A stretch of DNA of 64,000 bases, taken from Dehalococcoidia bacterium. Its GTDB lineage: Bacteria > Chloroflexota > Dehalococcoidia > UBA2979. The first letter of the stretch is position 1. Each line of letters opens with the position of its first letter. Shown piece after piece: positions 3,628 to 19,837 of this stretch. The stretch is from contig OZ219871.1 in assembly GCA_964291495.2 (NCBI GenBank), positions 832,001-896,000 of the forward strand, read 5' to 3'. A model generated the notes under the pieces. That model had not been told where the DNA came from, did no database searches, and was given only the letters and a program-made list of their open reading frames with translations. The translations under genes were made by a program, and so were the position numbers.

Positions 3628-3830
3628 CCGGGCTCCTGTCCGTTGGCCGTCTCCATCTCCTGGTTCCCGCCGTCCACTGGGTCTTGGGTGGCCGGCGTCC
3701 GCGACTTGGATGCCGACCCATCCTGGTAGAGGTCCGGGTTCGCGAGGGCGTGGCGCACGATGATGCGTGCGAGAGTGCGAAGGCCCTCGATGCGGATCCG
3801 CTCCTGCTCGTCTGTCAGCCGTTGCCTCAT
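3609..3830 (-). CDS. Small hypothetical protein
   Basis: AGGAG RBS, ATG overlapping the ImmA-like stop; helical charged N-terminus. Confidence 0.55.
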   Translation of the reverse strand: MRQRLTDEQERIRIEGLRTLARIIVRHALANPDLYQDGSASKSRTPATQDPVDGGNQEMETANGQEPGHSKER

Positions 3831-4312
3831 AGTCCAGCTCCTGAACGAGGGGTTTCAGTTTCGCTCTCTACGGTGACGTCTGCAGGAGGTTGCAGGCGAA
3901 GCGGATCGAGTTGGACCAACTCGTCGGGGACTCCGAAGTGCTCGGCCATCTCCCACGATTGAACAAGGCCTTCCGCCTCCGCTTCCTGCTCGTCGATGAG
4001 CAGTCCGTGAGCGAAGTCCTCCGCCTCCCGTTCATAGCGCCGTGCGAGATCCGTGTGGGCGCGCAGCCAGAGGTGATTGCCGGGATGGAGTAGCTGGTGC
4101 CCGATGGCGTGGGCGATCACCCATCGCCGCCACTCCGGGCTGAGCCGCTCCGCGACCACGACGATGCCGTCGATCTGCAGCTCCTTGAGGACGTCGAGTG
4201 GCCAGGGGATTACCTCAAGCCCCAGGGCGACGGCAACCGCTTCGGCGTCCACGCGGCCGAGCAGACCCAGCTCCCGCCGCAAGGTCGAGGCCCGTTGTCG
4301 CGCCCGGTTCAA
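3827..4312 (-). CDS. ImmA/IrrE family metallopeptidase-like protein (HAxxH variant)
   Basis: RRWVIAHAIGHQLLH and EREAEDFA..LLI motifs; GGAGG RBS before TTG. Confidence 0.8.
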   Translation of the reverse strand: MNRARQRASTLRRELGLLGRVDAEAVAVALGLEVIPWPLDVLKELQIDGIVVVAERLSPEWRRWVIAHAIGHQLLHPGNHLWLRAHTDLARRYEREAEDFAHGLLIDEQEAEAEGLVQSWEMAEHFGVPDELVQLDPLRLQPPADVTVESETETPRSGAGL

Positions 4313-4408: not shown

Positions 4409-7400
4409 CTACTCGCCTGGACCGGAAATCGTGAACTCCAGCCGGTCGGAGAGCTTCCCGCCGGATCCCGTGCAGACCGCGCCCCGCACGCCGCAGTCCG
4501 TCGCGGCGGGCAGCACGATGGTCACATCGCCAGTACCGTCCGGCGTTACGGTTATCTGCCAGTGAATGTTGCGGGTGGCGCTGTGACGATCCATGCGCCG
4601 CACCTCCGTTACCTGCCCACCCGTCACTGTGAGTGCATCGTCCCTCAACGTGAGGTAGCTGAGGCCCGCGATATGCTCGCTGAACCGCAGCTCGAAGGTG
4701 AACGCCGTCTGGCCGTCGTGGCTCTGCGGCGGGTTCTCCAGGCGGGCGGTCAGGTGTTCCGCGGCCGCCACCGTGAAGGAGACTTCGAGTGTTCCGAGTA
4801 CGTTGCCGCCGAGAGCCCGCCCCGAGTAGGCCGTCGCCCGGAGGAAGTAGCTGCCGACCGGCAGGGGCTGGCCGTTCAGCCCGCCCTCGCTGTCCCCGTA
4901 GAGCGAATAGGGAGCGTAGTTCTCCGTCTGCGAGACCGTCTTGGCACCGGAGAGCTCCAGCCGGACGCTCCCTACGCGTACGCGGTAGTCGGTCTCCACC
5001 CGGATGCCAAAGGCGCCGTTGTCGGGGTCGCTCAGCCTCAGCGCGGCCCCGCCAGTGAGGGCTCCCAGCACCTGCTGGTTCGCGGCGTTCACCACCGTGA
5101 AACCGGTCAGAGGGTCAGGCGGCGTCACCGCCGCCGTCATGTCGCTGGTGAGCTTTTCGTCGAAGTTGTTGTTGTCGAGGAAGGAGACCTCCACCCCGAT
5201 CCTGCTGCCCCTGTCGGCGTCCCGCAGGGTGTAGCTGGAAGCGGTCGCTCTGTAGATGCGACGCTCGGTCCCCCCATTGCTGCGGATCCACTGGTACTTG
5301 AGGAGGGCTCCGTCCATGCCGTTGGCGTCGGCGATGCCTGACACGTCAGCCGTCAGCGTCTCGCCGGTCTCGACCGTACCGCTGATCGTGGGCTTGCCCG
5401 TGGCCGGGGTATTCTGGACGGACTCTCCTAGGACCAGGCTCACCTCCACCTCGTCTCCGTGCGTCCACCCCAGGCCGGGATCCGCCCACCGGAACCGGTA
5501 GGGTGACTCGTTGACCCTCTCTGCCGAGGCTTCACCTGAGGCAAACTCTTCGTCGCCCACCCGCAACACGAAGGCGTAGTCGAACATCTTGGACATGCCG
5601 AAGTTCAGTTCGCTGTCCATGAGCAGGACGTAGTAGACCGTGTGGGTCGCTCCGTCCACCTCAAACCTAGTTTCCGACAGGGCGCCCAGTGTCGGTTGGC
5701 CGAACAACGTGTAGCCGCTTGCGCTGCGTCTGGTCTCCACGGTCAGCGTCGCCGTCCATGCCGCCGCTGGGCCCGACTCAGGTGCCGCCGAGACCTCGGC
5801 CGACGGCGAACCCTCGCCCACATCGTTGACGGCAATGACCCGCACCGCGTATTCCACCCCGCCCGTCAGCCCGCTGAGGGTGTGGGCAGGGCCGGTGGCG
5901 GTCTCCTCGGAAACGTCCGGCAGGGTGTCCCAGCTGCCCGAGGCATCCTTCCACTGCACCCTGTAGTGGGTGATGTCGGAGCCACCGTCGCTTACGGGCG
6001 CGTGCCAGGACAGATCCAGGGCCCCCGCATCGTGCGGAGACGCTTTCAGGTGTTGCGGCGCCCCCGGTACGGTGGCTGCAACCGCAGTAGTGGACGCACT
6101 CGTCAGGGATTCCTCGTTGTCGGCACCGTCTCTAAAACTCACCCGCACCTTGATGGTCTTGCCCGCATCGTCGTCGGACAGCACATACGTTGAGTCCGTC
6201 GCGCCACTGATGTCCACGTCGGTGTTCCCGTGGTTGGCAATCCACTGGTAGATAAAGGTGGCGTTGTCCAGCCCGTCGGCGTCGGCGATGCCTGACACGT
6301 CAGCCGTCAGCGTCTCGCCGGTCTCGACCGTACCGCTGATCGTGGGCTTGCCCGTGGCCGGGGCGTTGGGAGCTTCCGCAGCAATAGTCGCAAACCGTGC
6401 GATACGTGCCGAAATCGTCTGGCCGTCCTCCCAATCGACATCGACATCCTCCCAGGTAAAGTTGCTATCTCCTGGGTCTAGTTCCACCACTAAGTCTCCA
6501 ACTTGGAGGGTCAGATCCGCCGTGCCTGGAACGCCCTCAGAAAACGCTAAGCGTAGCTGGCGCTCCGGGGTGTAGTACCACAGCCACTTTGCCTGGAGGA
6601 CAGAACTGCCGCCGATATTCGAGAAGAGATCGGCGCGGACTGCGCCAATGGCACCATTGCCGAGGTCCACCACGGACATATCCGCCGACCACACCGGAAT
6701 TTCTCCCTTAACTGCCGCCGTTGATGCGCTGGATAAGGACTCCTTATTGCCACGGTCGTCAGTGAAGTTGACCCGAACTCTGATGGTCCTGCCTTCGTCG
6801 CCGGGTTCCAAGGGGTAGGTCGATCCCACGGCGTCTTGGATGTCCGTGTCCCCGGTTCCGTCGTTTTGAATCCACTGGTATTCGAAGATGGTGTCGGCGA
6901 GGCCATCGGGATCGGCGATCTCAGACGTGTCCACCGTCAGCGTCTCGCCAACCCTTGGGGTTCCGCTAATGATGGGTTCGCCGCTCGCAGGACCGTTATC
7001 AAAGCGCGAATCTTCGGTGAAGACCCAAGGTCGGGCCTGTTTGATCGAGAGAACATCCTCGCTCGTGATTTTGAACTCAATCTCGATGGCGAACAGATCA
7101 TCGGCTTCGATCCCGTAGAGTTCCGCGAGTTCGTCGTGGATCACTTCGAGGTGGCTGCGCAACTGAACCATTTGGGCATCGCTCATCAGGAGTTGCCCTC
7201 GCGCCACCTGATTGGAGGTCGCAAGAACTTCATACGTACCGGACCCGTGTAACAGAATCTCCTCGGGTATCGAGCGTGCCTCCGGGTTGGTCACCAAGTC
7301 CTCGCCGAGCTGCGTGTTGACGTAGTAGGCCCCATCTGTGCCACGTATAGGGTCGAAGCTGACGGCGACGCCATTGGCCCGCTCGTCGGAGAAGTTGGGA

Positions 7401-9385
7401 TGTACTAGCACTCCCATCGCCGTGATCATGTGGTCGATGCGGTGGAACTCACGCTCGGTGAAGGCCCGGAAGTTCCAGAGGCTGGCGTACACCTGCTTGA
7501 GGGACTTGTCGATGCCTTCTTCCGCGGTCTCATCCGGCTTCTGGGTCTTGGAGTCGTACAGCCCCGCGCCGCTGAATCCGGGAAGGTCCTCGTTGTTCGT
7601 GCTCGACCGGTAGCGCAGCGACTGACCTTCCGGGTAGGTGGCGTGCATCTCCTCCAGTGCTTCGACGATCCACACCGGCGTCTCACCGTTCTTGATCTTC
7701 TTGCGGAGCTTCTTGAGCTCCGACGCCTGGGTGTCGTAGTCAGACTGGAAATTAGGGTCAACCAGCATCTCTTCGATGTCGTCGTAGAACCCGTTGTGCT
7801 TCATGAACTCGTCGTAGAAATAGAACGGCACGGCGAACCCATCCGGGACGGTACCCTCAGGGAAGCCGAGTGTGCGGAGAACGGCCATATTCGCCGCCTT
7901 GACGCCGAAGGCGTCCCAATCGTCGAATGCAACGTCGTTGAGGGCGGTGATCTGTGTGACCGTCAGATCCCGCTCCGGCGTCTGGGGCTCTGATGGACGG
8001 GAACCGGCATAGTGAGCATCGACCTCTTCCGGTGTTGCCGCGCGGATTGTGTAGCCCGACTCGTCCACTGTGTAGTGGACATAGCTGCCGATGAGATCAC
8101 CAATGTCGTGATCGTGGAGGGCGTCGCGGATGAAGGCGTTGGGGGCGCCGTCTTGCACCGCCCGCAGGTTAACGTGCGACAGCGGGGTTTGAGGCACGGT
8201 CGTTATGATGCCCGCGACGCGCGATAGCTCGTTAGGCAAGGTCTCGTAGATCACGATGTCGCGAGGGTTTGGCCTTTCCTCCAGGGTCATTAGCCGTAAT
8301 GCGCCGTACCCTTGGCCCCGATTGAGCAAGACGAAGTCGACATCGGGGAGGATGTCGTCCTCGGCCAGCACAGTGACTCGGGAATCCTTGTAGAGCGCCT
8401 CTTCTTCTTTATACAGCTGCAGCGCTCGTCCTGGCAGTGGGTAATAGGAAAGGTTGTTCTCGATCAGCGGCATGCTAGCCGCTAAGAGCTCGTACGAGTG
8501 GCTAACATCCGCGAAGTGGACGGCGCTCACGGGCTCGAATTCGAATCGGTATACGCCAAGCGAACCATCAGGGGCAACGATATTGGGATGAAATACGATC
8601 ACTCCCCTCAACGTCCCTTGAAACCGATGCCAGCGAGGGTCGCTCCAAAGGTCGGTGGCTGACTCGAACTGGAAATGTGCTCGGTGTGTCTCAGTGTTTT
8701 GGAAATAGATACCAGGATGGTTGGTGTCCATCCCGAACAGCACGAACTTCACGAACTCTAGACCGACTAGATGCGTGTCAATTGACACGGCTGCGCCCTT
8801 GTAAGAGAGCCCTTCAAACGTCTCTCGGTCAGGTATGGCTAGAGCGCCATTGGCAAATGAGATGACTGGGGCCGGGTTCAGCGGGTTTCTCCCTACCCTA
8901 TCCTGGAGTTCGGTGATGTCGTCGATGCAGTCGCCGTCGAGGTCCGCTGGCTCGGCGACCAGATGCCTCTCTATCCGGTAATGCTCCTTGGGCAGTGCTT
9001 CGAGTTCCTCCGTCAGCGTGGTCGTTCCCGCTTGGCCCAGCGTCACCGAAACCGCAATTTCCCGAGGGGAATCCAGATCAGGTCGTACAAAGAGCGCGAA
9101 GTACTGCTCGGTGGTGGACTCGACGACGATAGGAACGTCCTCAACCTCGACCTCCGTTGGCGTCGGCGCTGGGTTCGTTCCAGGGCACGCATCCTCCTCT
9201 GCGGGTTGCTGGGCGGAAGCAGTGGACCTAGGTAGGAGCAATTCTGGGTGGGAGACGGCCGCTACAGTGGCAGCGAGCACGACCAGACCGAACAATTGGA
9301 GCGCCTGCCGCCGGATCGACTTCCTCGGGTTCCGAGTCCCAAAGCGTCGATAAATGGAGTTATCCACGCTATAACTTCCCGGCAC
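4409..9385 (-). CDS. Large exported protein: signal peptide, PEP/pyruvate-binding (PPDK N-terminal) domain, Ig-like repeats and Fn3; true start probably supplied by DNA inversion
   Basis: GVKAAN, RSSTNNEDLPGFSGAGLYDS and IKQARP motifs; three PA(T/S)G(K/E)PxISGT repeats; Fn3 (PGAP..L.W..P..DGGS.IT.Y.VQW); no RBS before GTG 9385. Confidence 0.8.
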   Translation of the reverse strand: MPGSYSVDNSIYRRFGTRNPRKSIRRQALQLFGLVVLAATVAAVSHPELLLPRSTASAQQPAEEDACPGTNPAPTPTEVEVEDVPIVVESTTEQYFALFVRPDLDSPREIAVSVTLGQAGTTTLTEELEALPKEHYRIERHLVAEPADLDGDCIDDITELQDRVGRNPLNPAPVISFANGALAIPDRETFEGLSYKGAAVSIDTHLVGLEFVKFVLFGMDTNHPGIYFQNTETHRAHFQFESATDLWSDPRWHRFQGTLRGVIVFHPNIVAPDGSLGVYRFEFEPVSAVHFADVSHSYELLAASMPLIENNLSYYPLPGRALQLYKEEEALYKDSRVTVLAEDDILPDVDFVLLNRGQGYGALRLMTLEERPNPRDIVIYETLPNELSRVAGIITTVPQTPLSHVNLRAVQDGAPNAFIRDALHDHDIGDLIGSYVHYTVDESGYTIRAATPEEVDAHYAGSRPSEPQTPERDLTVTQITALNDVAFDDWDAFGVKAANMAVLRTLGFPEGTVPDGFAVPFYFYDEFMKHNGFYDDIEEMLVDPNFQSDYDTQASELKKLRKKIKNGETPVWIVEALEEMHATYPEGQSLRYRSSTNNEDLPGFSGAGLYDSKTQKPDETAEEGIDKSLKQVYASLWNFRAFTEREFHRIDHMITAMGVLVHPNFSDERANGVAVSFDPIRGTDGAYYVNTQLGEDLVTNPEARSIPEEILLHGSGTYEVLATSNQVARGQLLMSDAQMVQLRSHLEVIHDELAELYGIEADDLFAIEIEFKITSEDVLSIKQARPWVFTEDSRFDNGPASGEPIISGTPRVGETLTVDTSEIADPDGLADTIFEYQWIQNDGTGDTDIQDAVGSTYPLEPGDEGRTIRVRVNFTDDRGNKESLSSASTAAVKGEIPVWSADMSVVDLGNGAIGAVRADLFSNIGGSSVLQAKWLWYYTPERQLRLAFSEGVPGTADLTLQVGDLVVELDPGDSNFTWEDVDVDWEDGQTISARIARFATIAAEAPNAPATGKPTISGTVETGETLTADVSGIADADGLDNATFIYQWIANHGNTDVDISGATDSTYVLSDDDAGKTIKVRVSFRDGADNEESLTSASTTAVAATVPGAPQHLKASPHDAGALDLSWHAPVSDGGSDITHYRVQWKDASGSWDTLPDVSEETATGPAHTLSGLTGGVEYAVRVIAVNDVGEGSPSAEVSAAPESGPAAAWTATLTVETRRSASGYTLFGQPTLGALSETRFEVDGATHTVYYVLLMDSELNFGMSKMFDYAFVLRVGDEEFASGEASAERVNESPYRFRWADPGLGWTHGDEVEVSLVLGESVQNTPATGKPTISGTVETGETLTADVSGIADANGMDGALLKYQWIRSNGGTERRIYRATASSYTLRDADRGSRIGVEVSFLDNNNFDEKLTSDMTAAVTPPDPLTGFTVVNAANQQVLGALTGGAALRLSDPDNGAFGIRVETDYRVRVGSVRLELSGAKTVSQTENYAPYSLYGDSEGGLNGQPLPVGSYFLRATAYSGRALGGNVLGTLEVSFTVAAAEHLTARLENPPQSHDGQTAFTFELRFSEHIAGLSYLTLRDDALTVTGGQVTEVRRMDRHSATRNIHWQITVTPDGTGDVTIVLPAATDCGVRGAVCTGSGGKLSDRLEFTISGPGE
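5324..5409. repeat. 86-bp exact direct repeat, copy 1 (copy 2 at 6278-6363)
   Basis: Identical ggcgtcggcgatgcctgac...cccgtggccgggg in two repeat domains of the large protein. Confidence 0.9.
6278..6363. repeat. 86-bp exact direct repeat, copy 2
   Basis: Identical to 5324-5409. Confidence 0.9.
9343..9370. promoter_or_regulatory. Putative tyrosine recombinase site, left (11-6-11)
   Basis: AGCGTCGATAA-ATGGAG-TTATCCACGCT: inverted 11-bp arms (1 mismatch) around an asymmetric 6-bp spacer. Confidence 0.8.
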
Positions 9386-9582
9386 TGACGAATAGAAAGC
9401 GGCACCCGCCGGGAGGGACTACGATTGTCGAAGGCCACACTCACGGGGCTTCGTGCCCGCACGACCATCGCCAGCTTCCAAGCGCCGACCACGACTCACA
9501 CCGGGCTTGCCCGCTCGTCCTGGGCCTCGCACCTGGCCTGGATGCCGCCTGGGAGGCTCCCGCTGCTCGGGAAGAAGCGGCC

Positions 9583-10689
9583 GTGCCCGGTCCGGGTCGA
9601 GGAGCTGTGGCAGGCACGCCGGTGAGCGGGGGGTACGGAGAGGTTGGGCACGAGACGGGAGCCGCCGGCGGGGTGGCCACGGCCAACGCGCTCCTGGCCT
9701 CTCCGCCGCCACCCGACGTCGCCCCAACGGGCCATTCGCGGCCGGGTGCTGCGGCCCTGACCACGTCTGACGTTGACAACCTCAACGCGGTTCTTGACCA
9801 CGAAGTCGCCCGAAGCACCCTCAGGAACTACCGGGTCCAGTGGAAGAACTTCATCGCTTGGACGCTCAGGAAGGGCGTCTCGGCGCTCCCTGCCGACTCG
9901 GCGCAAGTCGCGGCGTACCTGGCCGAGCGGATCGAGGAGCAGGGACACAAACCGGCAACACTGCGGGTGGCTGCCTCCGCGATTGCCTTCGTGCATAAGA
10001 CGGCCGGCATGGGCGATCCCTGCGCTGGGCAGGAGGTGAAGAGGACACTCAAGGGCGCAACGCGGAAGGCGGGGCGATCGCAGAAGCAGGCGGAGGGGCT
10101 GACGGCCGACGCCCTGGCCGCGATCCAATCGACGGCTCGCAATCCAAGGACGGGCAGAGGAGGGAGGCTCGAGAGTCAAGGCACCGCCGAGAGCAGGGGG
10201 AACCTGGACATTGCGCTCATCAGCCTCATGCGCGACGCCATGCTGAGGGTGTCGGAAGCGGCCGCGTTGACATGGAACGACATTCGGACTGCGCGCGACG
10301 GGACGGGCCGCCTCCTGATCCGCCAGTCCAAGACGGACCCAGAGGGGGAGGGCGCGGTCGCGTTCGTATCGGCGCCCACAATGGCGATGCTTCGATTGAT
10401 ACGCCGAGGCGCGACCGACACCGACCGTGTATTCGGCCTTCGGCCCAACCAGATATCGAGGCGGATCAAGCAGGCGGCGCAGGTGGCGGGGCTCGGCAAT
10501 GGCTTCAGCGGCCACTCACCGCGGGTGGGCATGGCGCAGGATCTGGCGAGAGCGGGGATCGAACTACCGAGCTTGATGACTGCGGGGCGCTGGCGCACTC
10601 CCGCCATGCCGGCGCATTACACGCGCAATGAGTCTGCCGGCAGAGGGGCCGTGGCGCAGTTCTACGACACACACGCCCATCTGGCCTGA
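9583..10689 (+). CDS. Cre-like tyrosine recombinase (start uncertain)
   Basis: Catalytic set LRVSE (R), SKTD (K), GHSPR (HxxR), GRW (W as in Cre), AHY (Y); N-terminal SAM-like domain. Confidence 0.9.
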   Translation: MPGPGRGAVAGTPVSGGYGEVGHETGAAGGVATANALLASPPPPDVAPTGHSRPGAAALTTSDVDNLNAVLDHEVARSTLRNYRVQWKNFIAWTLRKGVSALPADSAQVAAYLAERIEEQGHKPATLRVAASAIAFVHKTAGMGDPCAGQEVKRTLKGATRKAGRSQKQAEGLTADALAAIQSTARNPRTGRGGRLESQGTAESRGNLDIALISLMRDAMLRVSEAAALTWNDIRTARDGTGRLLIRQSKTDPEGEGAVAFVSAPTMAMLRLIRRGATDTDRVFGLRPNQISRRIKQAAQVAGLGNGFSGHSPRVGMAQDLARAGIELPSLMTAGRWRTPAMPAHYTRNESAGRGAVAQFYDTHAHLA

Positions 10690-10805
10690 CGGGGTGCACA
10701 CGCACTGCTGACCCCCGTTCGGTGAGCGGCGAGCGCAGGCCAATCCCGGACCGGACAACGAACTAGCGGTGGCGCGGAGGTCCATCAGATGGATCGATCA
10801 GATGG

Positions 10806-10886
10806 TTGCCCGCGCTGGTGGCTCCATGCTAGGTTGCTGTCATTGACGCCCTTACCGGTGGAGCATAGGAGGGGGCCAAAGCGATG
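10806..10886 (+). promoter_or_regulatory. Putative promoter, RBS and ATG inside the invertible segment
   Basis: TTGCCC-18 bp-TAGGTT with extended TG; AGGAGG at 10867-10872; ATG at 10884. Confidence 0.55.
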
Positions 10887-10908
10887 TATAACTCCATTTA
10901 TACGCTCT
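10881..10908. promoter_or_regulatory. Putative tyrosine recombinase site, right (inverted relative to left)
   Basis: GCGATGTATAA-CTCCAT-TTATACGCTCT; the 14-bp core 10888-10901 is the exact reverse complement of 9350-9363. Confidence 0.8.
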
Positions 10909-11176
10909 GACATTTACGGAATAAATGCGAAGAAGAGTTTCTCGAAGTGACTGAATTGGCCTCACCACCGCGCTCCTTCCGAAGCTGGTCGTAGACCTCC
11001 TTTAGGACTCCCTTCTATCTTACTACGTGACATATAAAGCAGGGGTAACCGAGTCACAAAACGGCGGTAAACAAGACGGTGCCTTGCGTGGAACACGAGG
11101 CTCCGAGGAGCCGACGGCAAGTTCCCGCTGGTTGCCTCGCCGAACCCTGAGGGGCGAACCTACTGCCCGGCGCTTC

Positions 11177-11545
11177 TCACGCTCCGCTCCGCCTTCTCTT
11201 CCGGCGTTGCGCACGCACGAACCTGATGAAGTCGTGGATCGACTCGATGTCCTCTGGCGGGAGGCCGGCCACAGCGTCGCGGAATGACACCTCCGCCGCT
11301 TTGAGCAACTCCGACTCGACCACGGATTGCCCAAGGAGTTGGTCCGCGCTCGTCTCGCAGTGGAAGGCCACCTCGACGAGGTGCTCGTGCTGGGGCTTCA
11401 TGCGGCCTGCCTCCCAGGCCCATACGGTGTGCGAGGCCACGCCGACGAGCTCGGCGAGTTGTCGCTGAGTCAGCCCCACCTGCTTGCGTGCCTCGCGGAT
11501 ACGCCCTCCCAGGGCCTTCCAGCGGTAGCCACGGTCCCGGGTCAT
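11177..11545 (-). CDS. XRE/Cro-C1 HTH repressor (ImmR-like)
   Basis: LGGRIREARKQVGLTQRQLAELVGV...WE.GR..P; AGGAG RBS. Confidence 0.85.
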   Translation of the reverse strand: MTRDRGYRWKALGGRIREARKQVGLTQRQLAELVGVASHTVWAWEAGRMKPQHEHLVEVAFHCETSADQLLGQSVVESELLKAAEVSFRDAVAGLPPEDIESIHDFIRFVRAQRRKRRRSGA

Positions 11546-11598
11546 GCGTGGGGGCTCCTGCATCCTTCGCCTCGCCAGAAGACGCTCTCCAAGATGAT

Positions 11599-11612
11599 AG
11601 AACACGCGTTCT
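11599..11612. promoter_or_regulatory. LexA (SOS) box, GAAC-N4-GTTC type
   Basis: AGAAC-ACGC-GTTCT with perfectly inverted arms, touching the -35 hexamer. Confidence 0.7.
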
Positions 11613-11640
11613 TGACAGGCACTGTGTCCTTACATACAGT
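11612..11640 (+). promoter_or_regulatory. Sigma70 promoter for the HTH gene trio
   Basis: TTGACA-17 bp-TACAGT; ACAGT/ACTGT inverted repeats overlap it (possible repressor operators). Confidence 0.75.
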
Positions 11641-11685
11641 AGCACACTGTCCAGACGCAGATCATCGAGGAGCCTACGCACCGCC

Positions 11686-11928
11686 ATGCGCCGCCGCCGA
11701 GCAGTGGTGACACTCAAGCCCGAACCGCTCTGGGAGCGATTGGCCGTCCTCGGCCGCTCCCAGAACTGGCTTGCGCGTGAGGCGGGCATCAGCCCCGGCT
11801 ACCTCTCCATGCTGGTCAACGGCAAGCGCGCACCATCGGGCCGCCTCCGTAGGCGGCTGCTGCATATCCTCGAGGTGGAGGACTTCCATGAGTTGTTCGC
11901 CCTCCGGACGCCGGCCGACGACTCGTAG
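11686..11928 (+). CDS. XRE HTH protein (Cro-like)
   Basis: SQNWLAREAGISPGYLSMLVNGKRAPS. Confidence 0.8.
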   Translation: MRRRRAVVTLKPEPLWERLAVLGRSQNWLAREAGISPGYLSMLVNGKRAPSGRLRRRLLHILEVEDFHELFALRTPADDS

Positions 11929-11962
11929 GGCCGCTCCCCGGCTGCCCCGCTACAGCGGCCCC

Positions 11963-12238
11963 GTGATCGCCGGGCGTCGCGTGCCCTACGGCAGGGGCGA
12001 GTTGCCGGAGGACTTCCCGGACCGGCTTGAGCGCTTGAAGCGGGCCAGCGGCCTGAGCTGGGACGCGTTCGCGGAAGCCGCGGGTGTCGAACGCAAGCAG
12101 GTCCTCCGCTGGCGCCGGGGAACCGAGCCGAGCGGCAGCGCCTACCACGCTCTTGTCGAGCTGGCCCGCTGGATCCCTGGTGGCATCGAGATCCTCTTGG
12201 GCGAGGACTTCCTCGCACCCCGGACCGGAGCCAAGTGA
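11963..12238 (+). CDS. XRE HTH protein (start uncertain)
   Basis: DFPDRLERLKRASGLSWDAFAEAAGV...RWRRGTEPS. Confidence 0.7.
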   Translation: MIAGRRVPYGRGELPEDFPDRLERLKRASGLSWDAFAEAAGVERKQVLRWRRGTEPSGSAYHALVELARWIPGGIEILLGEDFLAPRTGAK

Positions 12239-12501
12239 TGCCGCGTCGCCGACCGCGTCCCCGGCGGGCCTCCTACGTGTACCCCAACGACTTCGGGCAG
12301 AGCCTGGAGCGAATCAAACAGGCGTCGGGCCTCACCTGGGCGGAGCTCGCCCGTCAGCTCGGGACCACCACGCTCAACCTCTGGCGCTGGCGCAAGGGCG
12401 TGCATCCCAGTAGCCGCCACTTGCTCGCCCTCCAGGACCTCGCACGCCGCCTGGACCTCGCACACCTGCTGCCGAGAGCGAGGATCCGCAGGCGATTGTG
12501 A
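12235..12501 (+). CDS. XRE HTH protein, paralog of the preceding gene
   Basis: DFGQSLERIKQASGLTWAELARQLG...RWRKGVHPS. Confidence 0.75.
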   Translation: MMPRRRPRPRRASYVYPNDFGQSLERIKQASGLTWAELARQLGTTTLNLWRWRKGVHPSSRHLLALQDLARRLDLAHLLPRARIRRRL

Positions 12502-12595
12502 ACATGAGCAGCACCATGCCCTCAGGCTGGGTCGCGCGAGGAGCACTTGCCGTCGGTCTTGGGGAACCGAAAGACAGGCGACGCGCCACCCCCGT

Positions 12596-14191
12596 TCATT
12601 CTGCAGGGGTGGTGAACGCGCGTTTCAATACCGCGTCCAGGTCTCTCCGGAACCCACCCTCGCGCCCAGCGACCGCTCCTAGAGCGGCAACGTCGTCCCC
12701 GAAAGGTTGACTTGGCCCCGGATAGAGGATGGCTGCGTACTCAACCACTCGCTGATCATCCTCTCCGCGTATTGCGTCGCGGTAGGCATGCATCTTGTCG
12801 ATGTCGGACTTCTTGGGACGTCCGGTCAAGCCCTCTTCGTCGTCATCGCGGTCTTCGCTGTCGAGCTTGTACTTGGGGTCGAACACGAACAGCCGTGGGG
12901 CCGAGTCGAACGCTCGAACTTCGAGAACGATATCGGGGCGCTGGGGGAAGCTCACCGAGCGCGGCCATCTGGTCCGACCGAATGTCCGCTCATGTGTGAG
13001 GGTTGCCTCCGTGCCTGACTCGTCATGCCGGTACCGCACGAGCGGCCTGCCCCCGGGAAGCACTTCAATGAAGAGTGCCGCTTGCCGCCGGCGGGACAGG
13101 CGCTCCTCAACAACTCGGAAGCCTCGTTCACCAGCCGCCTGGGTCACCGCGTCGACCAGCTCGAGCAAGCACCACCGCTGGTAGAGGTATGGGAGATTCT
13201 CCAAAGGGGCGTCGAGCGCATCGTCTTCAAGATGCACAGCGACGCTGCGTCGGAATTCGACCAGTCCGTCGAGAACGGCGCGATACTCGGGTCGATTGAG
13301 GAGCACCATCGTTAGGACGATGGGGAGGTCGCGAGGTGTATCAACCTCTGCCAGGAATGTGGCGGCACGCTCAGCGCTCCGGAGCTCGTTGCCCAGCGCC
13401 TCGAGCTCGGCGAGCACTGCCTCACGCTCGACGACCTCGGCGAGAAGTCGCCGGATCCTCGTTGCAACCTCTCGGGCGAAGGTCTTCAGGAGCCGGTTCT
13501 CGTACACATCGGCCGTGTGTCTGACTCGCTGATCGATGAGCTTGCGCAGCTCACCCTCTTCATTGACGTTGCCGGCTGCGGCAACGGCCAATGCAAGGCG
13601 TGCTGGTTGGGGGCGGCGGACGCGGTCCGCTCGCATCCATACGTCGTCGTTGCGGAAGATGCGATACGGATCTCGCGAGATGCTTCGGAGCGCTTGTGCT
13701 AGCCCCGGTCGTCCGGACGTCCCGCGTACAGCCCGCCGCAAGCGCAGGAGCTCCTGCGCAAGCGTGGACTCGCGACGCGGAAGCAATCGCAGTCCTTGCA
13801 GTGCCCCTAGGCGCTGGAGCCCGACCGCGATCGACGTTGGCAAACCTGACTCCAGAGCGTCTATCGTGCCCGCAAGAGCTTCTCTGTTCAGCTTCCCTGA
13901 CCGAATGGTGAAGGCGATCGAAGCCGAACCGGATGGCGACTCAAGCTCGATGAGGTAGTTGCCTGGCCCCGAGCGCGGCCACTCGACAGACACCCCGCCC
14001 TTCCAGGAGGGGGTCGCCTTCGCACTGCCGAACGCCTCTCCCTGCAGTTTGAGTTGCGCGCCCTGTGCTTCCCACTCCTCTGGGGTGACGCCTACCTCGA
14101 GCGTCGACGGCTCCCACTCACGGGGAGTGTCTATCGGCTGGCCCGACGCATCGACAAACCTCAGCTCAGGCGAAGTAGCTGACTGAACCAT
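12596..14191 (-). CDS. McrC-like nuclease (DUF2357 + PD-(D/E)XK)
   Basis: DVYENR, LYQRWC, RPDIVL..FDPKYK, KMHAYRDAI motifs; overlaps the McrB-like gene. Confidence 0.85.
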   Translation of the reverse strand: MVQSATSPELRFVDASGQPIDTPREWEPSTLEVGVTPEEWEAQGAQLKLQGEAFGSAKATPSWKGGVSVEWPRSGPGNYLIELESPSGSASIAFTIRSGKLNREALAGTIDALESGLPTSIAVGLQRLGALQGLRLLPRRESTLAQELLRLRRAVRGTSGRPGLAQALRSISRDPYRIFRNDDVWMRADRVRRPQPARLALAVAAAGNVNEEGELRKLIDQRVRHTADVYENRLLKTFAREVATRIRRLLAEVVEREAVLAELEALGNELRSAERAATFLAEVDTPRDLPIVLTMVLLNRPEYRAVLDGLVEFRRSVAVHLEDDALDAPLENLPYLYQRWCLLELVDAVTQAAGERGFRVVEERLSRRRQAALFIEVLPGGRPLVRYRHDESGTEATLTHERTFGRTRWPRSVSFPQRPDIVLEVRAFDSAPRLFVFDPKYKLDSEDRDDDEEGLTGRPKKSDIDKMHAYRDAIRGEDDQRVVEYAAILYPGPSQPFGDDVAALGAVAGREGGFRRDLDAVLKRAFTTPAE

Positions 14192-16427
14192 GCTCGTTGA
14201 AACGAATGCGCATGCGGCGTGCCTTTTCCGCACTCAGCGGGAAGCGCTCCCCGCATAGTTCGATGAAGCCCGCCAAGGATTGCTCGATACGTGGGTCGAT
14301 GCCGTGTACCTTCGGCAGCAGCTTCTGAAGCATCTGTTCGTCGAGAGCTGCCTCAACTTCCACCCCGATCGCCTCGGCTTCTTCTACGTAGTTTGTAATG
14401 TCGTCGATCACCCTGAACGCGAACGGCGCGACCTCATGCAGCGTGTCCCACGCAGACAGCAAGGCTTCGGCAAGCGGCGAGTCGCCAAGGTGCCCCTGAA
14501 TCGCCTCTCGCGGCGCTTCAAGTTCAACCAGCTGTGCCCGGTCGTAGACTTTGTCGGCGAACCCATGTGTGGTCTCGTCCACGTTGACGGTGCCGACGAA
14601 CCGGAGGTTCGGCGTGAGCCACACTTGCTCCTCTCCCAACTGGAGGGCCACCTTCGTCTCGCGTTGCCGGACTTCGAGCGCGGAGAGGAAGGTCGCGAAG
14701 TAATACTCAACGCGCGCAAGATTCATCTCGTCGAGCACGAGGTAGTAGGGAACCGCCTTCCGGCCCGCCGCATTCGCTGACTCCCACTCGTTGCCCGCTC
14801 TCCGTAGGAAGTCGCTGAACTCTGTGTCGTAGTAGGCCTCCCGAAGCGGGTTGAAATAGCCGAGCAGGTCCTCGTTCGTCGTCCAGTTGGGGGCCACCGC
14901 AACAAGGCACTGTTCGCCGGCGACAGCGCGCGCGTATGCCTGTGCGAGCCAAGTCTTCCCGGTCCCGGAAATGCCAGAGAGGATTACGAAGCCACGAGAC
15001 CGCAGCGACAAGTGCAAGCGTCGAAGCGTTCGGTCACTGATGACGAGACCCTCAGCGTCGATGCGCGACCGAATCGTTTCAAGGTCCGGCTCAACATAGT
15101 CAGCTGCCGCTTCACTCTGAACCTCTGGGTCGATCGAAACGCCCTCAGCGAGCTGCCGGAAACTGTCAGAAACCTTGGAGGCGAAGCCTTCAGAGAGCGG
15201 GTACAGATACCCCTGGTTGACGGAGCCGCGCCGATTGAATGGCCCGCGCTCCTCCTGACGCCACTCGATCGGTATGTCTCGCAGCGACACGGGGTCACTG
15301 AGTGCTTCCACGTGTACCTGGGCAAGCCTGCCATCGGGTTGCCACCCCTCCTTGGCCAACGCCGCGGGGATCTGCGAAAGCTCAGCGGCCTCTGCAACAC
15401 TCGAGACCGCTCGGATGTGCCCCGCCCAGTAATGGAAGACCCTATCGCCGACCGTAAGGTCGGCCATGTTCCGATGATGAGCTAGCTCCCTATCGCCCGA
15501 CTTGACCGGGGCCCACAAGTAACCCCCCTCGATCTCTTGTTCGTGCGTACCTCCTTGGTTCACCCACCAGTGGCGCCTCACGTGATCCGTCGACGGCTTG
15601 TCCTCGACGGCCTCTCGCTTCACTCGCTCCACCGTATGGACAAACTTCGACACATCACCCTGGACCTGCCCGCCGTCGAGGTCCGTGACCAAGGCGAATC
15701 TCCTGTTCTCTCCACCATCGTCGGCGACAATCTCGGAACCTTCGTAGCCGTCCCAGAAGGCACCGGGGCCGATTCCTGCTCGTCCTCCTCCAATCCGGCC
15801 TCGGTGAAGGAGTAGCGTATGTCCGGACTCAACCTCGCGTGCGAAGCATCCACCGATCCGCCGGTTCACCCCCGCAAGTGGTGAGTTCACCTCGCAGGTA
15901 ATCGAGGTCATGCCGCCGGGGCTTGGCTCCGAGGTCCCAAGCGCGTTCCAAAACCGGTTTCCCTCCGGCGCGACGCGGGACGCTAGCCAGACACTCTCGG
16001 CCGCAAGCCAGTAGGCAGTCTCCTCGACGGAGCCGCCCTGGAAGCCGAAGCGAACACCGTCGATCGGGACGGTTCCCCGCCGGAAGGCTCGGGCGAATGC
16101 TTCCTGAGCCTCTTGTATCTCGTCCACTGCCGAAAGCACGACCGCCGTAGGCGAGTCGAGCTGCGCAAGATTTGCCCTGGCGGCAGCGACGTCTTCGAAG
16201 TTCCAGAACTCGTAACCATTCGTGTTCGGAGAGGCGCGGCCTGGGTTGGCGCGGGTAATGACTGCCATAGCCGCGCCACTTGGCGAGGTGTAGGCACCAA
16301 CGCCATCAACCTCGTATTGACTGCCACCGCCAGGTCCGCGGACGATCCGACACCGATATTCGCTGCCCATGTACCCGGCGACCAGGACTACTCCGGGCGC
16401 TAGGAGTGAGCGTTCTTCTTGCTTCAT
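14166..16427 (-). CDS. McrB-like AAA+ GTPase with N-terminal RAMA-like and EVE/PUA-like domains
   Basis: GISGTGKT, LDEMNLAR, GTVNVDE (NxD), DRA; SPSGAA...NGYEFW; WWVNQG...GGYLWAP. Confidence 0.85.
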   Translation of the reverse strand: MKQEERSLLAPGVVLVAGYMGSEYRCRIVRGPGGGSQYEVDGVGAYTSPSGAAMAVITRANPGRASPNTNGYEFWNFEDVAAARANLAQLDSPTAVVLSAVDEIQEAQEAFARAFRRGTVPIDGVRFGFQGGSVEETAYWLAAESVWLASRVAPEGNRFWNALGTSEPSPGGMTSITCEVNSPLAGVNRRIGGCFAREVESGHTLLLHRGRIGGGRAGIGPGAFWDGYEGSEIVADDGGENRRFALVTDLDGGQVQGDVSKFVHTVERVKREAVEDKPSTDHVRRHWWVNQGGTHEQEIEGGYLWAPVKSGDRELAHHRNMADLTVGDRVFHYWAGHIRAVSSVAEAAELSQIPAALAKEGWQPDGRLAQVHVEALSDPVSLRDIPIEWRQEERGPFNRRGSVNQGYLYPLSEGFASKVSDSFRQLAEGVSIDPEVQSEAAADYVEPDLETIRSRIDAEGLVISDRTLRRLHLSLRSRGFVILSGISGTGKTWLAQAYARAVAGEQCLVAVAPNWTTNEDLLGYFNPLREAYYDTEFSDFLRRAGNEWESANAAGRKAVPYYLVLDEMNLARVEYYFATFLSALEVRQRETKVALQLGEEQVWLTPNLRFVGTVNVDETTHGFADKVYDRAQLVELEAPREAIQGHLGDSPLAEALLSAWDTLHEVAPFAFRVIDDITNYVEEAEAIGVEVEAALDEQMLQKLLPKVHGIDPRIEQSLAGFIELCGERFPLSAEKARRMRIRFNEHGSVSYFA

Positions 16428-16784: not shown

Positions 16785-16964
16785 ATGACAGGACCGGTGG
16801 CGCCGAATCGCTATGCGGTCGTGCTCAAGACCGAGTGGCGGACCGGCCCCCGCACCCGCGCCTGGGACGAACTGTGGCGCTGGCTGCTCTCAGACGCTCT
16901 CCCTGACCCTCGTCAGTCCGGCATCCCTCGGTCTGATGGCGATGGGGAGCAGGACACGGCCTAA
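16785..16964 (+). CDS. Small hypothetical protein upstream of the serine integrase (start uncertain)
   Basis: GAGGA RBS + ATG; AWDELWRWLL helix. Confidence 0.4.
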   Translation: MTGPVAPNRYAVVLKTEWRTGPRTRAWDELWRWLLSDALPDPRQSGIPRSDGDGEQDTA

Positions 16965-17145
16965 CCGCTCCCGAACTCTCGCGGTCCGGTTGCCCGGAGG
17001 CTTTGGGCAGCGCGAGCCTTGCATCGTCCCGTGGCCTGGTGAACGATTGGGTCCGACCTCCCCGAGTATCGAGTCGGCTGGCACCAGAGGGCTCAGGTGC
17101 ACGAACGAGCAGCGAGAAGCCCCGGCCTCAACATGGGAGATGGCA

Positions 17146-18729
17146 ATGCGAGCGATCGTCTATTCACGCGTGTCGACCGACACACAAGAGCGCGACGGCA
17201 CTTCACTTGATACGCAGGAGCGCGCGTGCGTCGAACTCGCCGAGGACCGTGGGTGGCGCGTAGTGCGCTGCGTCCGCGACGCCGCCAGCGGAGGGGCGCT
17301 GGAGCGCGACGGCCTGGACGAACTGCGGGCGGCGTTGCAGCGGGGTGAGGCTGACGTCGTCGTCGCGTACGCGGTTGACCGCCTGTCGCGGAGCCAGAAC
17401 CACATCGGGATCCTGTTCGACGAGTTCGAGCGCGCCGAGGCGCGCCTCGAGTTCGTGACCGAGCGCTTCGAGGACACCGCGGTCGGGCGCTTCATCCTCG
17501 CCGCGCGCGCGTTCATCGCCGAAGTGGAGCGCGAGAAGATCGCGGAGCGGACCATGCGCGGCAAGGAAGAGCGAGCGAAGAGCGGGCGTATCCCCCAGGC
17601 GTTCGGCCGGGGCTGCTACGGGTACACGTACAACCCGGAGACCGGGCGCCGCGAGATCGATCCCTATCAGGCGGCGGTCGTCGGCCGGATCTTCGTGCGG
17701 TACGCGGCCAGCCGCAGCTTCTCGACCGTGGCCAACGAACTCAACGACGCCGGCATCCCTGCCTTCTCGGGAGGGCGCTGGTACGGGATCACGATTAGAC
17801 GAATGCTCCTCAACGAGGCGTACATCGGCCGCACTGTGTATCGCAGAACGAAGCGGGTGCGAGTGCGCGCTGCGGGAGCGCGCAGGCGCACCCGCGTGAT
17901 CGAGCGGCCCGAAGAGGAGCACATCGAGATTCCTGGCGCGACCCCGCCGATCGTTGACACCGAACTCTGGGATCGCGTTCAGGCGATCCTCAACGACCCC
18001 GAGCGAACGAATCGGCGCTCCACCGCGAAGCGCCAGTACATGCTGAGTGGCCGGCTGCGCTGCGGGCTCTGCAGCAGCGCGATGGTAGGGCAGACGCTCA
18101 CCTCGAAGGGTAAGACCTACTCGTACTACCGCTGCCGGCACGCCTACACCCGAGTCACCGGCCACCGCTGCGAGTCCCGCTACATCCGGGCGGAGGCGCT
18201 TGAGCAGGGGACTAGGGCTGAGGTGCGCAGTGTGCTCACCGAGCCCGAGCTTGTCCTGCGCGAGCAGCGCCGACTTGGCGAGACCGCACCCGACCCTGAG
18301 GAAGTCGAGCGGCTGGAGTCGGAGATGACCTCGCTGCGGAAGCGAGAGGAGCGGCTCGTTCGGCTCTTCGGCTACGACGAGGTGGACGGCGACGTAGTGC
18401 GTTCTGAACTTCGCCAGTTGCAGGGTCAGCGCGAGCTTCTCGCCAGCGAAATGGACGCCCTCACAGGTGTGGGGTCAGCGCTCGGTGCGGACGTTGACGA
18501 GGGTGACCTCAGACGGACCTGTGGCGCGATCGCAGAGCTCCTGGACGGCGCCGGACCGGAGGATCAGGACCTTGTCCTAGAGACGGTTCAGCTACAGATC
18601 ACGGCAACTCGCGATGAAGTGACGCTGGAAGGCGTTCTCCCGGTCGACGCGCCAGAATCTATCAGAACACCTCGTAAATCTAGTCAAAACGACCAGAAGT
18701 TTATCACCATTGAACAAACATCGGCATGA
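17146..18729 (+). CDS. Large serine recombinase (integrase)
   Basis: YSRVST catalytic motif, DRLSR, recombinase domain, zinc ribbon CGLC...YYRC...C, coiled coil. Confidence 0.95.
   Translation: MRAIVYSRVSTDTQERDGTSLDTQERACVELAEDRGWRVVRCVRDAASGGALERDGLDELRAALQRGEADVVVAYAVDRLSRSQNHIGILFDEFERAEARLEFVTERFEDTAVGRFILAARAFIAEVEREKIAERTMRGKEERAKSGRIPQAFGRGCYGYTYNPETGRREIDPYQAAVVGRIFVRYAASRSFSTVANELNDAGIPAFSGGRWYGITIRRMLLNEAYIGRTVYRRTKRVRVRAAGARRRTRVIERPEEEHIEIPGATPPIVDTELWDRVQAILNDPERTNRRSTAKRQYMLSGRLRCGLCSSAMVGQTLTSKGKTYSYYRCRHAYTRVTGHRCESRYIRAEALEQGTRAEVRSVLTEPELVLREQRRLGETAPDPEEVERLESEMTSLRKREERLVRLFGYDEVDGDVVRSELRQLQGQRELLASEMDALTGVGSALGADVDEGDLRRTCGAIAELLDGAGPEDQDLVLETVQLQITATRDEVTLEGVLPVDAPESIRTPRKSSQNDQKFITIEQTSA
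18701..18729. other. Putative att junction within the dnaN 3' end
   Basis: Integrase and dnaN overlap antisense by 26 bp; last dnaN codons TTT GTT CAA are AT-ending, unlike the rest of the gene. Confidence 0.65.
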
Positions 18730-19837
18730 CGACGTGGGTGTAGCGGTCGTCGCCGACGGGGCGGAGAACGCCGGGGCTTGAGGGGGAGCTGGTCTCGACG
18801 GCGACGCGGTCGGCGTCGAGGACCTGCAGGACCTCGGTGAGGTAGCGGCTGTTGAAGGCGATCTTTGCCTCCTCGCCGTCGACGATGGCGTCCAGCTCGC
18901 CTTCGTTATTGCCCAGCTCCTCGGCGCGCGCGGTGATCAGCAGCCGGCCGGGCGCTCCATCCTCGCCCGGCGTGGCGACGAGCCGCACGATGCCGGACCC
19001 GTCGCGCGCGAAGATCGAGGCGATGCGCGTCTCACGCATGAACTCAGCGACGGCGATTTCGGTTCGCGTCGCGTGCGCGCTGGGAATCAGCTGGTCGTAG
19101 TTGGGGAAGGTGCCCTGAAGCAGCGTGGCGCTGAGCGTCGCGTGGCCGAGGTCGAAGAGCACCTGCGTGCCGACGGCGTTGAAGCGCATCTCGACCGGCT
19201 CGTCGACCTCCGCGAGCATCCGCGCCAGTTCGCCGAGGGCGCGCGCCGGCACGATCGCCTCCCGCTCGGGAGGACTGCCCTCAAGCTCCATCGTGTGGAC
19301 GGCGAGGCGGAAGCCGTCGGCGGCGGCGAGGCGCAGCTGCGACCCCTTGATTCCGAAGTGGACGCCGGTGAGCACCGGCCTCGAGTTGTCGGTCGCGGCG
19401 GCGAAGACCACCTGGTTGATCGCCCGGCGCAGCGCGGTCGGGTCGAGGGCGAGCGAGTCTCCGTCCTCGACGGGCGGAATGGGCGGGAAGTCGTCGGCGC
19501 TCTGGCCGCCGATGGAGGCCTCGTTGCGAGCGCAGGAGAGGCTGACCTGGCGCGAGCGTTCGGCAAGCGAGAGGTTGATCGGCTGCTGGGGAAGCGAGGC
19601 CACGAAGTCGGAGAGCAGCCGCGAGGGGAGCGTGATCGCCCCGGATTCCTCGATGTCGGAGGCGATCGTGTAGGTGATCGCGATCGTCTCGGCGTCGGTG
19701 GCCGAGAGCGTGAGATTCGAGTCGCCTGAATCGAGCAGGATGTGACCGGCGATGGGGAGGGACGAGCGCGCGGGTACGGCGCGCGAAACGGCGCTGAGCC
19801 CCCGGTGGAGGTCCTCTTGCTGGACCGTAAGCTGCAT
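18704..19837 (-). CDS. dnaN: DNA polymerase III beta sliding clamp
   Basis: SRPVLTGV, AADGFRLA, GTFPNY, IAFNSRYL, VVMPM motifs; 377 aa. Confidence 0.97.
   Translation of the reverse strand: MQLTVQQEDLHRGLSAVSRAVPARSSLPIAGHILLDSGDSNLTLSATDAETIAITYTIASDIEESGAITLPSRLLSDFVASLPQQPINLSLAERSRQVSLSCARNEASIGGQSADDFPPIPPVEDGDSLALDPTALRRAINQVVFAAATDNSRPVLTGVHFGIKGSQLRLAAADGFRLAVHTMELEGSPPEREAIVPARALGELARMLAEVDEPVEMRFNAVGTQVLFDLGHATLSATLLQGTFPNYDQLIPSAHATRTEIAVAEFMRETRIASIFARDGSGIVRLVATPGEDGAPGRLLITARAEELGNNEGELDAIVDGEEAKIAFNSRYLTEVLQVLDADRVAVETSSPSSPGVLRPVGDDRYTHVVMPMFVQW

Follow-up and report, generated by a model that had tools for sequence, protein, structure and literature searches.

In Salmonella, the gene for the recombinase Hin lies inside an invertible segment of about 1 kb, from which an outward promoter drives a surface-protein operon (fljBA) in one of the two orientations. 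Hin is a serine invertase that acts at 2-bp crossover sites with a Fis-dependent enhancer and, to our knowledge, no part of its hix site is translated into the regulated protein. Here we describe a cassette of the same layout, with a recombinase gene inside and an outward-facing promoter-like element at one end, beside a giant secreted-protein gene in a 64,000-nucleotide stretch of a Dehalococcoidia genome (Chloroflexota, UBA2979; positions 832,001 to 896,000 of contig OZ219871.1, assembly GCA_964291495.2). This whole stretch is the window, and coordinates are positions within it. The enzyme and its sites differ from those of Salmonella: the encoded protein (P0002) carries the tyrosine-recombinase domain PF00589 and no Resolvase domain (PF00239), and so is not a serine invertase, the sites are of the lox type, and the cassette is not a member of the Hin family. 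An earlier, sequence-only reading of the window had cited hin as a promoter-only precedent; the position of the Hin recombinase inside its segment makes it a closer one.

Tyrosine recombinases are known from comparable switches. The fim switch of Escherichia coli is OFF-biased, and its element of about 300 bp is flipped by recombinases encoded outside it, at short repeats and with a need for host accessory proteins. The cwpV switch of Clostridioides difficile lies between the promoter and the open reading frame (ORF) and acts by terminator formation, with its recombinase RecV encoded elsewhere, in both of which respects it departs from the cassette described here; the vsa locus of Mycoplasma pulmonis is a surface-antigen inversion system. 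Cre itself serves circularisation and dimer resolution at single sites and is not known to act on an inverted pair flanking its own gene. The E. coli elements fimS (FimB/FimE) and ipuS (IpuA/IpuB) are described as promoter inversions by tyrosine recombinases that turn an adhesin or an autotransporter ON or OFF (PMC6083910); our cassette would share this principle, but has its enzyme inside and complete 34-bp lox-type sites. Like the cassette, cwpV couples a tyrosine recombinase (RecV) with inversion ahead of the gene for a very large protein, there one of the cell wall (PMC2784873). Site-specific inversion within the 5′ coding regions of surface-protein genes is described for UU172/mba of Ureaplasma, again a nearer precedent than the sequence-only reading had allowed (PMC3047005), and vpma/Xer1 of Mycoplasma agalactiae is a further surface-antigen inversion system (PMC2268961). 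Inversion at the 5′ part of a surface-protein gene links expression site and gene in those systems and would do so in ours, but they shuffle several genes, can make chimeras and have the recombinase outside, whereas the cassette has two sites and, on its other side, an ORF of eight codons.

Cre-type sites consist of 13-bp arms around an 8-bp spacer, with G(T)-A-T(G)-A next to the spacer in active sites (PMC10250229), and the sites of the cassette fit both this 13-8-13 geometry and, with TATA or GATA by the spacer, the four-base rule. The survey in question sought single palindromes with 8-bp spacers near the gene, and its relevant passages report no inverted pairs (PMC10250229). The main text of a survey of gene-altering inversions has no mention of Chloroflexi, and where it treats 'start codon' and 'promoter' no arrangement of this kind is described (PMC9881135). 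We found no description in the literature of a Cre-type recombinase flanked by inverted lox-like sites beside giant genes; the supplements of inverton surveys (e.g. PMC9881135, PMC10028968) could list such loci. Invertible promoters as such are a long-established idea; the novelty lies in the self-contained Cre-type form, the spread of that form and the translated site.

The left lox-like site (9340–9373) comprises the 13-bp arm CAAAGCGTCGATA, the 8-bp spacer AATGGAGT, with ATGGAG as its central 6 bp, and the 13-bp arm TATCCACGCTATA; the right site (10878–10911) consists of the arm AAAGCGATGTATA, the spacer ACTCCATT and the arm TATACGCTCTGAC. In a shorter parsing they read AGCGTCGATAA-ATGGAG-TTATCCACGCT at 9343–9370 and GCGATGTATAA-CTCCAT-TTATACGCTCT at 10881–10908. 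The two spacers are exact reverse complements, and the sites have in common, in inverted orientation, an exact 14-bp core, ATAAATGGAGTTAT; all the coordinates and sequences that the sequence-only reading gave for this pair, with its asymmetric 6-bp spacer, were confirmed. A repeat search returned the same pair as 17-nt arms at 9350–9366 and 10885–10901 with 94% complementarity. Even with up to two mismatches the 14-mer occurs only twice in the window, once on each strand, against an expectation of 0.01 from 100 shuffles, none of which reached two matches. With up to one mismatch it finds only the two sites in the whole genome of 3,079,595 bp (71% G+C). A relaxed core pattern recovers four places in the genome, and an arm weight matrix built from the arms of relatives' sites gives 43.7 bits to the left site, the best score in the genome, and 27.0 bits to the right site (inner arm 17.8, outer arm 9.2), compared with −6.9 and −19.3 bits for the other two places. 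The inner right arm has one A more than the family consensus, which creates an ATG, and the outer right arm is degenerate, falling 2 nt short. From the geometry of the sites, the predicted invertible segment runs from crossover region to crossover region at 9354–10897, about 1.54 kb. No third lox-like site was found in the genome by the relaxed-core and arm-matrix scans. Multi-cassette inversion systems of the shufflon or vsa/mba type need at least three sites and alternative gene segments; with two sites and eight codons on the right flank, the locus is not one of them.

The gene between the sites (9607–10689, plus strand; GTG 9607 follows GAGGAG, and the ORF is open from 9583) encodes a Cre-like tyrosine recombinase, as had been proposed. 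Its product matches PF00589 at residues 209–350 with 54.1 bits (cut-off 27.1), and its closest solved relatives are Cre and Cre-derived recombinases (E-value about 1e-11), the strong match to Cre being confined to the C-terminal 54 residues. In phmmer alignments with Cre-derived chains the catalytic motifs GHSPRVG/GHSARVG and GRW/GGW correspond, and HYTRN pairs with NYIRN/NFIRN, as do the R in LRVSE/LRIAE and the K of the SKT region/GRTKT; all these positions are assigned by alignment only. The ORF is intact with its catalytic positions kept, recombinase and cassette are single-copy in the genome (G000), and ENA holds many homologues of the recombinase at 70–81% identity. The recombinase frame is open upstream through the left site (9343–9606, and the equivalent stretches of L011–L013, three loci of the window's genus), and codons between the site and the conserved domain vary at the third position among relatives, for example in an A-C-P-L-x-L-G stretch; the true start may therefore lie further upstream than GTG 9607. 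Before 9583 the frame contains no ATG, GTG or TTG in the window, and an ATT at 9424 is preceded by GGGAGGGA. A start at the GTG of the outer arm, possible in L011–L013, was rejected for the window, which reads GTC there.

The giant gene (4409–9385, minus strand) encodes 1658 amino acids from GTG 9385, or 1652 from a GTG at 9367 within the site arm, and its product combines a signal peptide and an N-terminal module with PPDK_N, Ig-like repeats and fn3. The ORF meets the left site with no spacer DNA in between, and the site overlaps codons 5–16 as numbered from GTG 9385. Upstream of the n-region of the signal peptide the only start candidates are GTG 9385, which has no Shine–Dalgarno (SD) sequence, the arm GTG 9367 and, once the segment is inverted, the arm ATG; in the downstream direction a TTG within the hydrophobic core is the first in-frame start. 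The public gene call for this ORF (P0129) begins 113 residues further in. Homologues of the N-terminal module number 1410 proteins at an E-value of at most 0.001 among the scored candidates. Those that begin with the module (P0206, P0213, P0220, P0226 and P0242) have a start of their own followed by an RR n-region, a hydrophobic core and STASAQQ, and the window protein has the h-region and STASAQQ as in these full-length homologues. None of 40 homologues checked, out of 120 listed, has a site-encoded N-terminus. The protein forms a cluster of one member, and no other assembly of the gene is on record at 90% identity or above. The wider family (P0123–P0242) combines the N-terminal module with secreted PPDK_N (ATP-grasp-type), often twice per protein, and with sulfatase, LRR, cadherin or metallophosphatase domains; among its members is one that bears the label Candidatus Poriferisodalis.

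At the other end of the cassette, alignment across relatives reveals a conserved block between the recombinase stop and the right site. The promoter-like element of the window (10806–10835, plus strand) faces outwards and consists of TTGCCC, an 18-nt gap ending in the TGC of an extended −10, and TAGGTT (10830–10835). It is followed by AGGAGG (10867–10872) and, 11 nt further on, by the ATG of the inner arm (10884–10886), which at present opens the eight-codon ORF (10884–10910, plus strand). When 9357–10894 was inverted in silico, promoter, AGGAGG and ATG were joined in frame to the 1652-residue ORF, and only one orientation puts the giant gene under the promoter-like element. The prediction that inversion would create an in-frame fusion with a complete signal peptide was thus borne out, by script and by homology to the signal peptides of relatives. 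A tandem 12-nt direct repeat found by the repeat search (TCCATCAGATGG / TCGATCAGATGG; 10781–10805, plus strand) lies directly upstream of the −35 hexamer and may be a regulator binding site. GATCAG-like bases recur at the equivalent position in L012.

These features are consistent with a model where 9354–10897 is a self-contained invertible cassette, made up of the recombinase gene and then an outward promoter, an SD sequence and an ATG in the inner arm of the right site. The recombinase would bind the two 34-bp lox-like sites, which are inverted and have identical 6-bp crossover regions, and flip the segment between them. In the assembled orientation the promoter would point at the eight-codon ORF, leaving the giant gene without a recognised promoter and with no start but a GTG preceded by a weak SD sequence (OFF). 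After inversion, promoter, AGGAGG and ATG would stand in frame with the giant gene, and translation would begin within the recombination site and yield a full signal peptide (ON).

Homologues were sought in related genomes, in a species-representative genome collection and in metagenomes, and their flanks were then compared. Site-flanked cassettes account for 20 of the 44 recombinase matches examined; they come from 16 assemblies, with recombinases 60–78% identical to P0002 and inverted site pairs 1286–1538 bp apart, and the record titles of the relatives name Tepidiformaceae, other Dehalococcoidia, Caldilineaceae and Nitrospirales metagenome-assembled genomes. The 80 arms of these 20 loci give the consensus AAAGCGTGTATAA, adjoining a 6-bp spacer (13-bp arms with an 8-bp spacer are the alternative parsing); in its core ATAA the three A positions are invariant and the T is present in 73 arms. 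Sites in the window's genus are generally further from the consensus (8–14 of 18 positions) than those of other loci. Tyrosine recombinases require identical crossover regions in both partner sites, so co-variation of the two spacers is expected if recombination competence is under selection. Eleven different left spacers occur among the 20 loci, and in 19 the left and right spacers are exact reverse complements; the sole mismatch is in L094 (ATGCAG versus ATCTTG), which may be a locked copy.

Such sites were not found around the near full-length matches of at least 60% identity in L022 and in the second copies of L089 and L092, nor around truncated or partial matches in L016, L029, L030 and L095, and an exact-seed search returned no site pairs for 16 matches at 42–55% identity. 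The distant alphaproteobacterial homologues L032 and L033 (33–34% identity) have the same layout with 6-bp spacers, L032 with an ORF of 3227 amino acids on the left. The metagenome scan returned 27 loci, with L048 as the only close, site-flanked relative. A search of 65 genomes from the family of G343 added L100–L102, among which there was no new inversion: L101 is identical to L021, and L102 is oriented as L101. In L089, L092, L087, L088 and L026/L051 a second tyrosine recombinase, 47–68% identical to that of the window and without flanking sites, lies directly beside the cassette.

Inversion itself can be read from two pairs of sister species. L087 (G203) and L088 (G232), of the same genus, are colinear at 78–80% identity across the distal flank, the giant gene and the second recombinase gene, and between them the site-bounded segment is inverted, with junctions at the cores and the outer flanks matching at opposite sites. 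In the second pair, L091 (G343) and L093 (G136), which are 94–98% identical, a shared flank of 97.9% identity is joined to the promoter end in one and to the recombinase-start end in the other, and the switch point lies inside the core. About 415 bp of this flank is duplicated in inverted form on the other side in L093, so that these two loci differ by more than one event. Opposite orientations between sister species show that inversion occurs, as predicted for such cassettes, and do not give its rate. We are confident, with little room for doubt, that the sites are functional for the encoded recombinase and that cassettes of this family invert.

Comparison of the relatives also bears on the expression signals. 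The pattern TTGNNN-N14-16-TGNTANNNT was run on both strands over about 7.4–7.5 kb of each of the 20 loci. It gave 10 matches in all the sequence scanned, eight of which sit 81–92 nt before the right core and face outwards, in the window, L012, L013, L017, L018, L020, L087 and L088; the single match in the window is 10806–10835. The promoter proposed by the sequence-only reading therefore recurs, as the same motif at the same position, in eight of 20 homologous cassettes. At the left cassette end no match faces left, that is outwards, in any of the 20. At the promoter end, an SD-like AGGAG or GGAAG precedes the arm NTG by 7–8 nt in L011, L012, L021, L089, L090, L092, L093 and L094. Because an NTG one base before ATAA belongs to the arm consensus in all four arms (G in 70 and T in 67 of 80), the arm ATG is, judged by that consensus, primarily a feature of the binding site. 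In the window's genus (the window and L011–L013) the extra A that turns GTG into ATG occurs only in the inner right arm, which hints at selection for initiation there.

We consider it probable, and somewhat less assured than inversion in the family, that the cassette of the window works as an expression switch for the giant gene in the manner set out above. That the segment inverts in this organism at a phase-variation rate, that the motif is an active promoter and that the present state is silent are things we infer. The ON/OFF phase switch of the sequence-only reading gains from the finding of both orientations between sister species, but no inversion was seen in this genome.

Several observations weigh against the switch. 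The material available for this genome was the assembled contigs of one public run (share 0.99), and these yielded no inverted junction; one contig spans 8911–11400 in the assembled orientation, no joints were found in the run's contigs, and none of the loose ends listed falls at the sites, although contigs drop rare variants and are uninformative on a minority orientation. The outer right arm scores 9.2 bits compared with 17.8–23.9 for the remaining three arms, and this short arm may make the window copy sluggish, poorly recombining or locked. A scan of 9100–11300 with a strict sigma-70 consensus returned no promoters (and one terminator-like hairpin, with 1.5 expected by chance), and the promoter pattern is missing from 12 of the 20 cassettes. 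SD-like motifs are not confined to the promoter end, since GGAGGG or AAGAGG occurs at the inner left end of L017, L018, L020 and L048. In the window itself GTG 9367 has GGGAAG 7 nt upstream, and some translation would be possible in the present orientation. GTG 9385, as the sequence-only reading stated, has no ribosome-binding site, but a start codon in the same frame is already there at GTG 9367, with its weak SD-like motif; inversion would replace that GTG by ATG and add a promoter and a strong SD sequence. Across the family, a neighbour gene was identified at 18 loci and starts 64–977 nt past the site at 16 of them; several of these starts have their own SD-like motif, and the DNA upstream of them could hold a promoter. 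Finally, orientation is strongly biased: 13 of the 20 cassettes turn their promoter end away from the one large outward gene next to them.

Orientation is the main unexplained point. The bias would suit a switch that mostly stays OFF, or assemblies that captured the majority state, and it also fits rival readings. The promoter end directly faces a giant gene in L088 and L094, the latter being the locus with mismatched spacers, where the cassette lies between two divergent giant genes that are homologous over their first ~600 bp. In L089 and L090 it faces the second recombinase gene, with further genes beyond, and the giant gene of L089 comes only past that recombinase.

Among the alternatives, the one that fares best is that the cassette is real and serves its own biology, for example by making the recombinase's own expression depend on orientation or by taking up and swapping neighbouring gene cassettes within the mobile island, with the giant genes on their own promoters and inversions incidental to them. 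The starts 64–977 nt past the site in most relatives, several with an SD-like motif, and the divergence of recombinase and giant gene in 13 of 20 cassettes favour such a reading, and expression of the recombinase might depend on orientation, given that its frame runs open through the left site and that L011–L013 offer an outer-arm GTG as a start. The syntenic islands of the window and L011, which hold the same cassette with different giant genes, fit it too. In the window, however, no DNA separates site and ORF, which makes a promoter outside the cassette impossible; the conserved promoter motif faces outwards at the recombinase-distal end, no third site is available for cassette capture, and the promoter end of L088 faces a giant gene. 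We hold this reading to be unlikely.

Slightly less credible again is a switch that once flipped and has since decayed, with the degenerate outer right arm now blocking it and the giant gene permanently silent or only weakly expressed. The 9.2-bit arm, 2 nt short, the distance of the genus's sites from the consensus (8–14 of 18 positions) and the mismatched spacers of L094, which show that locked copies exist, speak for this. Yet the recombinase ORF is unbroken and keeps its catalytic positions, the two spacers remain an exact match, and an uninterrupted ORF of 1652 amino acids at 62% G+C would be unexpected in a long-silent gene. Lox-type sites with one weak arm, moreover, remain able to recombine in the biochemistry of Cre.

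Reversed polarity is a decidedly improbable explanation: the assembled and commonest orientation would be the ON state, transcribed from an unrecognised promoter that faces left, either within the 230 bp separating the left site from the recombinase or in the AT-rich site itself, with a start at GTG 9367, and the gene would be turned OFF by inversion. The prevalence of one orientation could reflect the usefulness of that state, GGGAAG precedes GTG 9367, and the GGAGGG or AAGAGG motifs at the inner left end of L017, L018, L020 and L048 would be suitably placed. Against this, the promoter pattern has no left-facing match at the inner left end of any of the 20 loci, the stretch in question resembles coding sequence of the recombinase N-terminus, and the ATG and the stronger SD sequence are at the opposite end; a terminator-like hairpin on the minus strand (9410–9398) just before the site is weak evidence in the same direction, with one found where 1.5 are expected. 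That the repeats arose by chance, or mark the ends of an insertion sequence that disrupted the gene, can be dismissed: repeats do flank a single recombinase gene in the manner of terminal repeats around a transposase, but the chance expectation is 0.01, the cassette is single-copy where an insertion sequence would show repeat-bounded copies in unrelated contexts, each end is a complete arm-spacer-arm site and not a plain terminal repeat, the duplicated unit of L017/L018 reaches past the repeats and takes in the giant gene, and the ORF is fused in frame and not disrupted.

Returning to the expression switch, its form need not be the same throughout the family. A large minus-strand ORF (at least 700 amino acids, or broken) starts 0–977 nt outside the left site in 15 of the 20 cassettes. 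Seven giant genes were scanned, and all encode extracellular-type domains (Calx-beta, cadherin-like, Big_9, fn3, sulfatase, SWM-repeat or PPDK_N); most giant genes begin in a signal-peptide-like manner, as judged by eye. The sequence-only reading had looked to homologues for flanking site pairs beside start-less genes; the pairs are there in 20 of 44, but most neighbour genes have their own start. In most relatives the start of the giant gene lies past the site, in several cases after an SD-like motif that the gene itself possesses, and so the family-wide mechanism would be promoter inversion, and the translated site would be peculiar to the window and, formally, to L089. L089 is the only other locus where a giant ORF runs into the site, there too in the frame of the arm NTG, but it has an ATG of its own nine codons downstream. 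Our broadest proposal is a tentative one, to which we would not quite commit ourselves: that the cassette is a horizontally spread, plug-in phase-variation module of ~1.4 kb placed before giant secreted proteins in uncultivated members of at least three phyla (Chloroflexota, Nitrospirota and Pseudomonadota), and that in the window it is the sole source of transcription and of efficient initiation, with the site encoding the first residues of the signal peptide.

The cassette of the window lies in a region of distinct composition, 3.5–19 kb, with 56–68% G+C compared with 72–77% outside it. This island contains a Replic_Relax/MarR protein, an M78 protease-like gene, the giant gene, the cassette, a conserved gene without a family, McrBC-like genes and a large serine recombinase. 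The latter (16813–18729, plus strand; PF00239 Resolvase, Recombinase and Zn_ribbon_recom) lies outside the invertible segment, overlaps the terminal part of a gene for the DNA polymerase III beta clamp (18704–20080, minus strand) and is probably the island integrase at the right boundary; large serine recombinases are also found near the cassettes of L090 and L091. In L011, from the same genus, the island order is the same with a different giant gene beside the cassette, and pieces of the island are 73–81% identical to a Tepidiformaceae record in another arrangement. In L017/L018, within one genome, the duplicated stretch takes in the cassette, the giant gene and ~270 bp on the far side of the right site. 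The low G+C content, the shared island order and the nearby large serine recombinases all indicate that cassette and giant gene travel on an integrative island, and the serine recombinase, Replic_Relax, McrBC-like genes and G+C contrast agree with the mobile-element context that had been suggested.

Downstream of the giant gene is the ImmA/IrrE-type M78 metalloprotease-like gene (3827–4312, minus strand; PF06114, phrog_87), the homologue of which lies between site and giant gene in L012 and L013. In L012 a short ORF from the arm NTG (9067–9204, minus strand) ends at the M78 start codon with a 1-nt overlap, and in L013 the corresponding ORF (9628–9752, minus strand) ends 8 nt before it, an arrangement that would allow translational coupling to the M78 gene. 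A conserved 22-codon leader ORF outside the sites, present at 12 of 40 site ends, was considered and rejected as a general feature, because the flanks concerned are homologous DNA and the ORF ends at the start of the next gene only in L012 and L013. To the right of the cassette, a conserved gene block (11160–12546, minus strand) has 82–84% DNA identity to L011–L013; the block, including its gene at 11160–11789 (minus strand), has no match in Pfam, NCBIfam or PHROG, and in the present orientation the cassette promoter would transcribe the block antisense. Then comes the McrBC-like pair (12596–16427, minus strand), composed of a 753-residue ORF with AAA_5 and a 545-residue ORF with DUF2357 and PD-(D/E)XK (PDDEXK_7); the syntenic island of L011 has a different ORF, of 1127 amino acids, at this position. 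Heme-biosynthesis genes of the hemL, hemB and hemD types follow at 20.3–26.2 kb. The window contains no tRNA gene and no Rfam family.

If the cassette flips in cells, programmed inversion would be a means by which uncultivated Chloroflexota, and bacteria from further phyla, vary their giant extracellular proteins; to date such behaviour is known chiefly from host-associated pathogens and gut commensals. The proteins so varied would carry cadherin-like, Calx-beta, fn3, sulfatase and PPDK_N-type domains, and the switch would be a portable unit that moves with mobile islands. Flipping would also explain the truncated automatic annotation of the giant gene of the window, P0129. The cassettes would, moreover, provide a naturally occurring set of Cre-type recombinases with matching sites, 11 different crossover sequences among them, of practical interest as orthogonal recombination tools.

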